Below are positions 42,082-63,881 of a stretch of DNA of 64,000 nt, in pieces. The stretch is from Octopus vulgaris. Lineage: Eukaryota. The number at the start of each line of letters is the position of its first letter. Position 1 is the stretch's first letter. A program made the translations under genes and the position numbers. The stretch lies in the NCBI GenBank assembly GCA_951406725.2, contig OX597822.1:43772001-43836000 (forward strand). The letters are read 5' to 3'. Below the pieces are notes generated by a model, which made no database searches, was not told where the DNA came from, and saw only the letters and a program-made list of their open reading frames with translations.

Positions 42082-42587
42082 ATATATAAGAAAATAGTAA
42101 AGTGTGAAAAAACGACAGAAGGCTTAAATGTTAAAAAATATATATATTTGTGTCAAAATGTCTGGAGAATATTGGAAAAATTTTTTTTCCTTTCCTTAAA
42201 ATGACATAATTTTAAAATTTTTAAAGAAATTACCGGTTTCGCGTGTAGCTTTTCAAATTTCTTGTGACGTTATGTTTATATTGCATGGAATTATCGTTGT
42301 TTTTATTTCCAGGAGATTTCTAAATAAGGGAGGTACCTCCCCTTATTTAGAAATCTCCTGGAAATAAAAACAACGATAATTCCATGCAATATAAACATAA
42401 CGTCACAAGAAATTTGAAAAGCTACACGCGAAACCGGTAATTTCTTTAAAAATTTTAAAATTATGTCATTTTAAGGAAAGGAAAAAAATTTTTCCAATAT
42501 TCTCCAGACATTTTGACACAAATATATATATTTTTTAACATTTAAGCCTTCTGTCGTTTTTTCACACTTTACTATTTTCTTATATAT
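42082..42587. repeat. Near-perfect ~505-bp palindrome
   Basis: ~250-bp arms centred on GGAGGT|ACCTCC at 42334/42335. (TA)n on the left; another TA tract ~35 bp beyond the right arm. Confidence 0.95.
42407..42446 (+). ncRNA. Type I hammerhead ribozyme, family E (U3-A8 core variant)
   Basis: aagaaat-TTGAAAA-GC(tacac)GC-GAAAC(cg)GTA-atttctt. 7-bp stem I, palindromic ACCGGT. Mirror copy at 42224-42263 on the minus strand. Confidence 0.72.
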
Positions 42588-43644
42588 TCACCCACGTGCT
42601 TTACCAAACAAACTTTCTTATCTATATATATATATATATATATACATATTTATATATTAAACCTTTGACACACTTGTATATATATATATATATATAACCC
42701 TAGTTAAATTTTGCAGGTGGTCTGAAGATCGACACCTTACTTAGCAGTTCCCCTTCAAGACACAAGCCTGAAAAAATTTTCTCGGCGGAGAGCGAAAGAG
42801 CTTCAGTTGCTCTTGCGTACACAAACCTCCTTCACGCCATTTATGTCAAGTGAAGGATTATGGCAAAATAAAGATTGGCAACATTCCGTCTCAGGTGTTA
42901 GCATCAGAACTAAGAGAACCGGATCAGAACCAGCATTATACCAATTCATCGGTCTCAGCTGCTACTCCCTTTGTAAAATTTTTAATGATCTCGAGAAGAT
43001 AAAAGGCAAATTTTATCTAAGCTGTACTCGAACACGGATATCGGGGTTTGTTATTCGAGTCGCTAATGATTCTTTCAATGCTTTGCCTGTGTGTGTACGT
43101 GCGTGTATGAGTGTGTGTTTGTGTATGACTCTTTGGACACATCCATATATGTAGATGCATTTATACATAATATATAGGACACATACGTGTATATGTGTGT
43201 ATACATAATATATATATATATATATATATATATATGTATATCAGCGTATATACAGCTATAGTAAACACTCACGCATACATATGCATTGCTGTATACACAC
43301 ATACACACACGCGCGCACACACATACATACTGAGGCATACACAGAAACGCACACATATAGATGTACACACATATGTATGTACACAACAAAGACATTTTGC
43401 ACGTTCTAGCACAAATCTGAGCACGAATTTTAATTTGATTGTTGAGATAGACAGGGAAAAGGAAAGAAACATGTGATGTGGTAGGAAGGGGAAGAGAGAG
43501 ATAGAAGTAGAGATGCAGGGAGAGAAAGGGCGAGGAAGAGAGAGAGGAAAAAAGAGTAAAAGATAGCGAGATGATAGGAGACAGTGAAATATTAGGAGCG
43601 ATGACATCGGATATGATGTTATATCCACGATTTGACATCTATAA

Positions 43645-44650
43645 CAGGTGGTGGTTATGATGGTGGTATATAGAATAGGGGGAGGAGAAGGAGGAGGAGG
43701 GTGAGATGATTATTGGAGTGAAAGTAACAGCAGCAGCAGTAGTGGTAGTAGTAGTAGTAGTAGTAGCAGTAGTAGCAGTAGTAGCAGCTACTTAGAAGAT
43801 ACTAAACAGACTAGTTTCAATAAATCTCTTATACTGTGGCACGAACTGAGTAAATTCCTTGAAGAATTTTTAATTTCCTCATTCTTCACAATAAGGGACG
43901 CCCACTGTTGAAGCGGCGGCGGTGGCGGTAGCGGTGGCGGTGACGATGGTGGTGATGTTTGTGGTGGTGGTGGTGGTGGTGTAGGTGGTGGTAGTGGTGT
44001 TGGTAGTTTTGGTGGTGGCATTGGTAGGAGTGGTATTGGTTGTGTTGGTGTGGTAGTAATGTTGGTGGTAGTAATGATATTGGTAGTGGGGTTGGTAGTA
44101 TGGTGTTGTTGTTGTTGTTGGTGGTGTTTTTGTTCTTGGTGGTGGGGGTGATGTTGTTGGTGATGGTGATAGAAATGTTTGTTGTGGTGGTGGTAGTGGT
44201 GGTGTTAATAGTGGTGGTGGTAGTTGTGGTGGTTGTAGTTGTGGTGGTGGTAGTTTTGGTGTTAATGGTGGTGATAGTAATAGTGTTGGTCGTCGTAGTT
44301 AATGGTGGTGGTAGTGGTGGTGGTCGTAGTTAATGGTGGTGGTGGTGGTGGTGGCGATGGTAGTATTGACGGTACAGCTGGAAGAGCTGGTGTTGGTTGT
44401 GGTGGGGGGTGTAAGTGGAAGTGAAAGCGTGGTGCGCTGATGGGTCGTTGGTGGATTTATGATGGTGGCGAGTGTGTGGTTTAGTGATGGTGATGGTGGG
44501 AGAGGGATGGTGCCTAGGTTAGTGATGACAAAAATGGCAAACGCTCTACTGATAGTGATATGGGAGACGGCGAGAGTGTGGTAGTTTTGATTTGGGGGGT
44601 GGTTTGCTGTTGGGGAAGGTTGTGATTATGTAGTGGTGGTCACGGTGCTA
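43645..44650. repeat. Degenerate (GGT/GTA/GTT)n low-complexity tract
   Basis: Direct reading. Confidence 0.92.
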
Positions 44651-61000: not shown

Positions 61001-63445
61001 TATATATATATATATATATATATATATATATATATATATATATATGTGACGTGTTTTTTTATTACAGTCAAGCTAAACTCCACCCTCTGTTATTCAGAGT
61101 TTCACGTTACCGGCCATCAGACAGTTGCGATAATAAAAACTAGTGAACAAATTTTATAAATTGTGAATATATATAAGCGTTTATGGGTGTTTAGATTCAA
61201 TATTTTATTCTACCCGGCGTCATTACTTGTGTGTGCGTGTGCATGAGTGTGCATATATTTATATATATACAAGTATGACTTACACAGGTATATATATATA
61301 TATGTATGTATATGCATATATATGCGTGTATAGAAATTTTGAAGTAGTGTACAGATATATACATATATTTACTATATATTTATTTGTATATATATATATG
61401 TATATATATATATATATATATATATATATATATATATATATATATATATATATGTATCTATATATATATATATGTATCTATATATATATATATATATATA
61501 TATATATATATATATATATATGTATACATATATATATATGTATATATATATGCATATATATATATGTATATATATATATATGTATACATATATATATGTA
61601 TATATACATATATACATACATATACATACACATATATATATATATATATATATATATATATATATATATATACACCAGAGTTAAGCATATTTCTGTTTGT
61701 GAGTGTAGAATGAATTAATATTATACCTCATAACATAACTACTTATTTTTCGCTTCATTTCAGCCAATATACATACAACAGTTTCATTTTCTCGAAATTT
61801 CATACTTCAGTACATTTTACAGGGCCTACATATAGCCGAATGGAAACTTATATATTCACATCCACGTGCTTTAAATTATATACTTCTTGTTTACGCATAA
61901 ACACGTTTACAGACAAGCCCACACATGTGAACATAAACATAGTATTTGTATACATATATAGTGTGTGTATGTGTGTGTGTGTGTGTGTTTGCGTGTGCAG
62001 GTGTGAGTAACTGCGTGGATGCATGTGTGTGGATGTATGCCACTGAGTGTCTGTGTGCGTGCGCATGTGTTGTATGTGTTTTTGTTTTCTTTTTGTGTGT
62101 ATGTAAATATTTATTTCTGTTCTGCATGTATCTATTATCTGTCAGAGCATATATCCATATACACACATGCGCACACTCGCACACACATTACACACACACA
62201 TTAACACATGCGTGTATGTGTATACATATGTATATGTATATGTATCTATTTATCACTCTCTCACTCTCTCCTTATATATATATATATATATATATATATA
62301 TATATAACCGTATATATAGATCGTTCGTGTATGTATATATATAAATATATATATACCTATATATATATATATATATATATATATATATATATATATATAT
62401 ATACCTGTCTATCAATTTCTCTACCTTATCTACCTGCACATGTATGTACGTCGAACGTTAGAGATACCCTAATGTTCTGCCAAAATTTTAACATCCAGTT
62501 CGCTCAGCTACCCAAATATTACCGACTGGTTCACGAAGCCAGCCCGATTTTGACCATAAATTTCGTAAAATCTTACCGTTTGTCAATAAAATATGACTTT
62601 ATGAATATAATATTAAAATACCCTAATATCTAGATTCAAAATAAGCCGGTGTCGAAATGCGCCTGAAGGGGAAAAAAGAGCGAATATTTTATATGTATAG
62701 TATACTGGCAAAGTTTATTTGATGCTACTACGGATTACACAATATAATGTTTCATTGGTTTGAGAAAGTGAGAGAGGGAGAAGGAAAGGGAGGGAGACGG
62801 AGAGGTGGTAAGAGGCTGACGCGATATGGGGAAATGGGCAATATGATGGATGTTAGAAAGACACATCCTTCAAACAGCCCCCAAAATATACGGTTTAGGT
62901 GACAGTGTCAATGTATTGTAGAGAGAGGGAAAATACCCATAAGAACAACGCAGGGGTGTCCGTTTCATATATATATACATATATATACAAAGACATACAG
63001 GAAGTAAACAGATACCTATAATTTTCAAAATCTTATTTAATTCGCAAAGCGAACAATTGAGATGTAATTTATAGGAAGGACTACATACTTCAGCATTTAG
63101 TTGAAATTCACTTTGCAGTTTTTAATTCAGAAACTCTTTTTGGCATTTAACTGATGAACTTTGTGATTGTCGCTTGTGGAATTTCTCCCCAATTTTGACG
63201 CAACAATCGAAACAATTCATCTTTAGATTTAGGTTTCTCTCGAGTTTTTTGTATAGCTCTATCTAGTATAATCCAAAGATTTTCAATTGGGTTCATGTCA
63301 GGAGTTTGTCTCGGTCAAGGAACCCTTTTGATCCCATTTTCAGCCAGCCATTGTTGAATCTTTTTCGGTGTGAGACATGGAGCCCCATCTTCCATGAATA
63401 AAAACTCATTTTTCGTTATGTTATCGTGTGAATATATCGGAAATA

Positions 63446-63881
63446 ATAGAAATATTAAAATAACTAAGTCTCTCTAAAAGAGAACAGCGGCAGCGTTCCC
63501 GGAAAATAATAGTTATCGCCATACTAATATGGCATTCTTATAAAAATAAGAAAAAAGCTGTCCGCTTATTAGCTCCATGAGGCCATCGCCTTAAGTTAGC
63601 TATTTGATACACAAACTGTATCCATATAACCTTCGAACAGAGATTGTCGGAAGCGACACCTACTGGCTGGCTACGCTGCATTGAAAAGGGGCAATACCCC
63701 GAAACGCGTCTGTAGCTGCCGGTCAAGTAGTGTGGAGCGACTGACCTCCCTTGTTCGAAGGTTATATGGATACAGTTTGTGTATCAAATAGCAACTTAAG
63801 GCGATGGCCTCATGGAGCTAATAAGCGGACAGCTTTTTTCTTATTTTTATAAGAATGCCATATTAGTATGGCGATAACTAT
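63446..63881. mobile_element. Fold-back insert carrying HHR family F, with 13-bp TSD
   Basis: Inverted arms 63506-63639 and 63752-63884. Direct repeat TATATCGGAAATA at 63433-63445 and 63882-63894. Interrupts a Tc1 reading frame. Confidence 0.85.
63675..63716 (+). ncRNA. Type I hammerhead ribozyme, family F (U3-A8 core variant)
   Basis: gctgca-TTGAAAA-GGGG(caata)CCCC-GAAAC(gc)GTC-tgtagc. 6-bp stem I with one G-U, palindromic ACGCGT. Predicted cleavage after C63710. Confidence 0.82.

Follow-up and report, generated by a model that had tools for sequence, protein, structure and literature searches.

Two hammerhead-ribozyme folds, here called E and F, lie in a 64,000-nucleotide stretch of the Octopus vulgaris genome (GenBank assembly GCA_951406725.2, contig OX597822.1, positions 43,772,001 to 43,836,000 of the forward strand; the window, numbered from its first letter), and both carry U and A at the paired core positions 3 and 8 in place of C and G. 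Using a descriptor for type I hammerheads with positions 3, 7 and 8 left free we found seven matches in the window (Table 1), three of them U3-A8 (E, an inverted copy of E, and F) and four C3-G8, against a mean of 0.19 (loose) or 0.01 (strict) matches per window in 100 dinucleotide shuffles. Judged from their sequence, E and F are hammerhead-ribozyme folds, far above chance, and the original prediction, which had placed hammerheads with a UUGAAAA core at both sites, was right in this respect. In both, three helices surround the core N3UGAN7N8A...GAAA...UH with the ends joined in helix I, and positions 3 and 8 form a Watson-Crick pair (U3-A8). E reads AAGAAAT / TTGAAAA / GC TACAC GC / GAAA CCGG TA / ATTTCTT (U3 at 42414, A8 at 42419, predicted cut 3′ of A17 at 42439) and F reads GCTGCA / TTGAAAA / GGGG CAATA CCCC / GAAA CGCG TC / TGTAGC (U3 at 63681, A8 at 63686, predicted cut 3′ of C17 at 63710). 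The palindromes ACCGGU and ACGCGU were both found in helix III as proposed, and helix III of E and F depends on a partner strand. The fold of F is more stable than its shuffles (z −1.86, or −2.67 with the extended helix I), and its extended helix I with an internal loop and its CAAUA loop II resemble the Rfam consensus; no contact between helix I and loop II is evident in E.

The expectation that a strict CUGANGA search would miss E and F also held, and Rfam misses them likewise. No Rfam hammerhead is present at either site even at an E-value of 10 or below, and for the whole window at an E-value of 5 or below none is among the 150 of 400 matches listed, all of which are microsatellite or hairpin noise. 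The RF00163 consensus has C3-G8, and the C3-G8 control at 13808–13852 matches this model at 32.2 bits (gathering threshold 34). Between the flanks of E and F no clear similarity was detected (local-alignment z 2–3, vs 24–180 inside families), nor does the repeat unit of F match the element carrying E in a BLAST search at word size 7, in line with the earlier claim that the two share no flanking similarity.

We identify E as the 3′ pseudo-long terminal repeat (pseudo-LTR) of a young Penelope-like element (PLE) with reverse transcriptase (RT) and GIY-YIG domains, because its anatomy (RT followed by endonuclease, tandems, inverted truncated copies, a tail and TA targets) matches that given for PLEs (PMC8557442). 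In the assembly, which comprises 2.8 Gb in 227 contigs with abundant (TA)n and (ATGT)n, the E region has 1,221 candidates, and the 40 that were scored gave 44 matches of 98–100% identity. The copies share a common 3′ end about 150 nt beyond the hammerhead and have variable upstream truncation points, with coverage declining upstream, and the longer ones encode RT and then GIY-YIG. The RT exceeds the cutoff of Pfam RVT_1 in L061, L187 and L191 (30.8 bits, cutoff 29.6); the GIY-YIG domain stays under the curated cutoff both in the E lineage (E-value 0.0027) and in a second family, G (E-value 0.00015), and the endonuclease motif of the E lineage, YVIKCSGC...YVGST, was recognized by reading. A CGRSNCATC linker (CX4CXXC) between RT and endonuclease fits the CX2-5CXXC motif of the Neptune and Nematis clades. 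Same-strand hammerhead pairs flank the open reading frames (ORFs) at distances of 3,996 bp (L183), 3,996 bp (L184) and 3,977 bp (L185), inverted pairs are joined at their 5′ ends in nine of the ten E stretches fetched, and (TA)6 or longer directly follows the 3′ end in 28 of 30 copies. The copy in the window consists of a 254-bp arm, its inverted twin and a 33-bp tail on one side only, as is known for PLEs (PMC8557442). Pseudo-LTRs with a hammerhead in partial tandems, inverted 5′-truncated copies and a one-sided tail are all present, as in endonuclease-containing PLEs.

The E element has a further ORF of about 450 amino acids upstream of the RT, which overlaps the RT frame by −1 (L183 minus strand, ~3644–5128 and 1384–3815; also L185, L188 and L191:1680–1691) and has no Pfam match. 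Of 13 intact copies that were read, 12 have the heptamer TTTTTTA 57 nt ahead of a PKIINLS motif; the 10-mer CATTTTTTAG stands at the corresponding place in the G family, whose protein is about 50% identical to that of E. This site may be either a −1 ribosomal frameshift site or a splice acceptor. A frameshift in ORF1 is mentioned for some PLE type in a figure legend (PMC8557442), and our search of the open-licence literature returned nothing on PLE ribosomal frameshifting with a slippery site. The G family (L073, L093, L094, L096, L190, L191) is itself a second PLE with RT and GIY-YIG and a U3-A8 hammerhead at its 3′ end, this hammerhead being the commonest U3-A8 type among the first 100 genome matches listed. 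It has TTACAG immediately before U3, which looks like a 3′ splice site, and such a site has been described for D. virilis Penelope (PMC4209133). One G copy (L171) carries C3 and G8 together. An old PLE remnant whose protein is 33–38% identical to that of the E element is found at 21818–22651 of the window.

The 362-bp non-coding tandem repeat that contains F is likely a non-autonomous retrozyme of the non-LTR kind, because its tandem period, GC content, hammerhead and lack of coding capacity fit the published descriptions (PMC7229834; 10.64898/2026.07.22.740005). The F region has 1,051 candidates in the genome, with 40 identical full-length matches among those listed, and the unit has a period of 362 bp, 41% GC and one type I hammerhead each. 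Half of the 30 loci fetched (15) show a tandem arrangement and 14 have copies on both strands, some of the loci overlapping. With the RT-endonuclease protein of E as the sole query none of the 30 loci matches at 1e-4 within about 1.5 kb, so that by this single PLE protein the unit is non-coding. In the window a partial unit and an inverted partial unit are flanked by 13-bp direct repeats, and it is likely that the 362-bp repeat is mobilised by a PLE. The downstream flank of F is weakly similar to families with units of 353–360 bp (z 6.4 to A, 5.7 to J, 20.9 to K, about 4 to H and 0.6 to M), and its score against the G family, which with E represents the PLEs compared, indicates no homology.

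Table 1. Positions of the hammerheads and the repeats that carry them within the window.
Feature	Position	Strand	Remarks
Hammerhead E	42407..42446	+	type I, U3-A8, 7-bp helix I, 2-bp helix II, ACCGGU palindromic helix III
Second hammerhead E, identical, in inverted arm	42224..42263	-	descriptor scan
3′ end (pseudo-LTR) of E PLE, 5′-truncated, right arm	42334..42587	+	99% identical to full element in L183
Pseudo-LTR of E PLE, 5′-truncated, left arm, inverted	42082..42335	-	adjoins (AT)n 42054-42088
Tail of ~33 bp, one end only	42588..42620	+	matches sequence after pseudo-LTR in tandem element; then (TA)n 42619-42657
Hammerhead F	63675..63716	+	type I, U3-A8, 6-bp helix I, 4-bp helix II, CAAUA loop, ACGCGU palindromic helix III
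F plus predicted extended helix I	63665..63724	+	7 further bp beyond 3x1 internal loop
Partial 362-bp unit bearing F	63624..63887	+	98.5% identical
Inverted partial 362-bp unit without hammerhead	63442..63639	-	sequence comparison
13-bp direct repeat TATATCGGAAATA, left copy	63433..63445	+	likely target-site duplication
13-bp direct repeat TATATCGGAAATA, right copy	63882..63894	+	likely target-site duplication
C3-G8 hammerhead	13173-13217	-	descriptor scan
C3-G8 hammerhead	13455-13499		descriptor scan
C3-G8 hammerhead	13808-13852		descriptor scan
C3-G8 hammerhead	24944-24986	-	descriptor scan

In a monomer, helix III of E or F is reduced to one A-U pair closing four bases. According to folds predicted with ViennaRNA, the cofold minimum of F is the active strand-swapped dimer (−31.9 kcal/mol vs −12.4 for two monomers) and the natural 362-bp tandem of F would fold in the same active, swapped manner, and the active dimer of E reaches −14.1 kcal/mol vs +6.2 for two monomers. 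Cleavage of both probably needs two same-strand copies that pair through the helix III palindrome, and the dimer dependence proposed earlier agrees with predicted dimers far more stable than the monomers. Same-strand copies are present in the source elements; at each window locus there is one sense-strand hammerhead only, and the sense copy of E is predicted to be buried in a perfect 250-bp hairpin. Both window copies are truncated daughters and, having no same-strand partner, are likely inert in cis, so that the idea of the window copies themselves as working dimers is not supported.

In the mechanism we propose, two copies in one transcript would swap strands through the palindrome and self-cleave, paired hammerheads would in this way cut unit-length RNA out of a tandem source transcript, and RT and endonuclease of the PLE would insert this RNA, for E mostly into (TA)n, as 5′-truncated inverted pairs. 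We infer the excision and insertion steps from the observed anatomy, copy numbers, same-strand spacings and core counts, and the cleavage is a prediction. None of the listed holders of these sequences is recorded as RNA. Contigs from sequencing runs that we guess to be RNA cover F and parts of the E element and span both predicted cut sites; they reveal no ends, strand or circles and weigh neither for nor against cleavage. One GT..AG joint is present in one of these contigs, on the strand opposite to the E element.

To place the U3-A8 core among the other 3/8 states we counted patterns throughout the genome, with the reversed pattern as control. With the tail CGAAAC-SS-GTH, which was built on E and F and hence favours U3-A8, there are 7,230 matches for U3-A8 (control 32), 131 for C3-G8 (17), 94 for C3-A8 (24) and 242 for U3-G8 (24). 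In the class with a 6-nt helix III, C3-G8 gives 1,292 (control 106) and U3-A8 1,072 (control 344). Over these two helix III classes and after subtraction of the controls, about 7,900 U3-A8 stand against about 1,300 C3-G8, or about 6 to 1, as pattern matches and not loci, since inverted pairs and tandems count repeatedly and the variable gap may double-count. GAAA, NUH and a palindromic helix III recur in unrelated families.

Within the E lineage one fixed-length pattern returned 1,714 U3-A8 matches, 18 with G5 changed, 28 with G12 changed and 8 with U3 changed. The changed ones are scattered copies across several subfamilies, and among about 1,900 E-lineage copies there is no amplified haplotype with a changed G5, G12 or U3, a pattern that supports and fits selection on the core. 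A8 is changed in 165 matches, and the 100 listed all have G8, in two helix II haplotypes. These U3·G8 copies are 95–99% alike and carry the PLE ORF, whose product is about 96% identical to that of E in the longer matches; because their helix I register hid most of them from the fold descriptor, they were identified by direct reading. In an 11-row tree rooted on an older U3-A8 relative they fall into a single clade (97/97) nested inside the U3-A8 subfamilies; this cleaner tree replaces a first one in which the truncated or chimeric rows L081, L082, L148 and L150 were misplaced. U3-A8 is basal in the E lineage. The original prediction had taken the double change of 3 and 8 as a sign of selection for catalysis, of which the constraint on the remaining core (G5, G12, U3) stands and the strict coupling of 3 and 8 does not. 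Independent variation of the two positions had been named beforehand as the result that would speak against it, and this is in part what the genome count gave, with amplified U3·G8 and C3-A8 subfamilies. Because these have also been amplified, the 3-8 pair is under looser constraint than G5, G12 or U3, and U3-A8, which preserves the pair, is likely an old state of these lineages.

A single C3U or G8A change strongly cuts hammerhead activity, and the double change partly restores it. The route between the two paired states can be followed in the H lineage, which consists of tandems of about 360 bp, has 224 U3-A8-type matches (A8 in 99 of the 100 listed) and supplies the majority of the 100 C3-G8 matches listed. 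For a tree rooted with families A and J the ribozyme was cut out of the alignment and 31 of 39 rows were kept, eight being dropped for less than 82% identity to L142 or for shortness. In this tree the U3-A8 rows are basal and the C3-A8 clade (96/87), whose copies are about 99% alike, is sister to the C3-G8 clade (100/98) within one C3 clade (100/99). The shortest path would thus likely be U3-A8 to C3-A8 to C3-G8, via an amplified mismatch. If the ancestor was C3-G8 and CpG decay produced C3-A8 later, one extra step is needed; such decay could still explain the C3-A8 subfamily. CpG decay as the origin of U3-A8 itself (C3-G8 to C3-A8 to U3-A8) was rejected, as the H tree points the opposite way. 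Rescue of C3-A8 in trans by its C3-G8 sister is likewise unsupported: the two share the same helices I and III, but the active fold is the predicted minimum of neither the heterodimer nor the homodimer. An open-licence literature search yielded no report of amplified C3-A8 intermediates and nothing relevant on hammerheads in octopus. More generally, U3-A8 may be the ancestral majority core of several PLE and retrozyme lineages in this genome, the 3-8 pair having evolved one position at a time through mismatches that still transposed, from U3-A8 over C3-A8 to C3-G8 in H and from U3-A8 to U3·G8 in the autonomous PLE; this proposal is tentative and we would put it a little short of evenly balanced.

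With good confidence, the explanation that we favour for the whole places E in a PLE pseudo-LTR and F in a likely retrozyme, with predicted self-cleavage as dimers only and U3-A8 as the old core. Several points weigh against it. The fold of E is about as stable as its shuffles (z −0.37), its helix II has just 2 bp, and its active dimer (−14.1 kcal/mol) lies above the predicted minimum (−15.5). Published PLE hammerheads cut weakly even as dimers (PMC4209133), and eight of nine Xenopus retrozyme dimers were uncleaved in vitro (10.64898/2026.07.22.740005). An autonomous partner of F was not found among the PLEs compared, the E element and the G family. A8G alone was amplified in an autonomous lineage (the 165 U3·G8 matches), at 14 of the 15 U3·G8 loci read in the E lineage the 1.1-2.1 pair, too, can form only if a U before U3 is bulged out, and in H an amplified C3-A8 haplotype accounts for 24 exact and 3 variant matches of the 94 C3-A8 matches, at about 20 loci by eye count, including tandem runs. 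The scattered pattern of G5, G12 and U3 changes, finally, reflects a handful of master lineages and has limited power.

The amplified U3·G8 and C3-A8 subfamilies and the short helix II of E would also be expected if the hammerheads were weak or vestigial passengers, with transposition proceeding without cleavage, a lightly constrained, drifting core and U3-A8 favoured by the AT-rich background, and Naiad PLEs indeed thrive without hammerheads, which perhaps parasitise PLEs (PMC8557442). We nevertheless consider this improbable, as no haplotype changed at G5, G12 or U3 has been amplified in the E lineage, as the same GAAA, NUH and palindromic helix III recur in unrelated families and as the C3-A8 clade is sister to one with the full C3-G8 pair. 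Less credible still is that E and F each switched from C3-G8 to U3-A8 independently under strict catalytic selection, with mismatched intermediates purged. The unrelated flanks would suit such a history, and the distant relatives of F include the C3-G8 families A and M, so that 3/8 switches did occur more than once; yet U3-A8 is basal in both lineages sampled (E and H) and common in many families, C3-G8 is derived in H, mismatched states were amplified and no C3-G8 ancestor was placed for the E or the F family. The two independent double changes of the original prediction are therefore not upheld. Chance likeness to a hammerhead, for which the missing Rfam hits and the unremarkable fold of E might be quoted, has a negligible probability; it is refuted by the strict shuffle mean and by 7,230 genome matches vs 32 in the control, and the location at PLE ends is as published.

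E and F are largely known biology, as the U3-A8 swap, the UUGAAAA core, the palindromic helix III and dimer cleavage have been published for PLE hammerheads. Schistosoma PLE hammerheads show U3-A8 covariation with about 1,300 such motifs, palindromic helix III and weak dimer cleavage, and among the cores in the supplement of the same work are UUGAAAA, in a PLE-linked hammerhead (S. mansoni 4), and one with U3·G8 (Saccoglossus 1) (PMC4209133); hammerhead dimer cleavage has been summarised (PMC6765202). E resembles the Cercyon PLEs of Schistosoma mansoni (Cervera and de la Pena 2014, PMC4209133) in its type I hammerhead within a pseudo-LTR, short palindromic helix III, predicted need for a dimer and U3-A8 core, and also in opposite-strand pairs 100–700 bp apart. 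It differs from the PLE hammerheads described there, with 4–5 bp in helix I and 7–8 bp in helix II, by having 7 and 2 bp, respectively, and by lacking an additional nucleotide between 9 and 10.1. The ratio of U3-A8 to C3-G8 is about 7,900 to 1,300 here (two pattern classes) vs about 1,300 to 2,000 in S. mansoni (PMC4209133). Among endonuclease-containing (EN+) PLEs, E is similar to the Neptune and Nematis type (PMC8557442) in RT followed by GIY-YIG, the CX4CXXC linker, 5′ truncation, partial tandems, inverted copies, a one-sided tail and (TA)n targets, a likeness of features, and unlike in its separate upstream ORF of about 450 amino acids overlapping the RT frame by −1. F is like metazoan non-LTR retrozymes (PMC7229834; 10.64898/2026.07.22.740005) in its tandem units of about 300–400 nt with less than 45% GC, one type I hammerhead each and no ORF seen, and its helices are close to the canonical lengths of 6 and 4 bp. 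In contrast to them it has a U3-A8 core and is inserted as an inverted pair in the manner of PLEs, with a 13-bp direct repeat. Natural U3-A8 hammerheads in which C3-G8 covaries to U3-A8 are reported to be active in vitro (Perreault et al. 2011, PMC3088659), and compared with the several examples given there the core is found here in thousands of retroelement copies. The likely stepwise path from U3-A8 over C3-A8 to C3-G8, by way of a mismatch that was amplified, is a small new point.

Other repeats with or without hammerheads are found elsewhere in the window. Family A at 13079–14066 is a 353-bp tandem and inverted repeat with three canonical C3-G8 hammerheads, and its relative J (72% identical) is U3-A8. 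The solitary C3-G8 hammerhead at 24944–24986 has a CAAUUG palindrome and adjoins (TA)n, its flanks being weakly similar to the pseudo-LTRs of E and G (z 4–10). A 491-bp tandem and inverted repeat occupies 46375–48798, and a further hammerhead family, outside our descriptor, is likely near 48568–48680 (+), where a CUGAUGA core and GAAACG...CGUA go with a helix II that is very long. Short near-perfect inverted repeats adjoining (TA)n at 48880–49030 and 12855–12995 are possibly fold-back ends of other PLE-type insertions. The ORF fragments at 50434–51772 (−) and 1822–2436 (+) we take to be similar to a long interspersed element (LINE) reverse transcriptase and a Tc1/mariner-type transposase, respectively.

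In summary, CUGANGA descriptors and Rfam miss most of the hammerheads in the two pattern classes counted (about 7,900 U3-A8 vs 1,300 C3-G8). Closely related natural subfamilies in this genome hold all four 3/8 states (C3-G8, C3-A8, U3-A8 and U3·G8), some of them 93–95% identical, and permit a direct test of whether hammerheads are required by PLEs or simply carried along, a question raised by earlier work (PMC8557442, PMC4209133). If the stepwise history is true, these lineages would offer a dated natural record of compensatory evolution within a ribozyme active site and a natural allelic series with which to ask how much cleavage PLE transposition needs.

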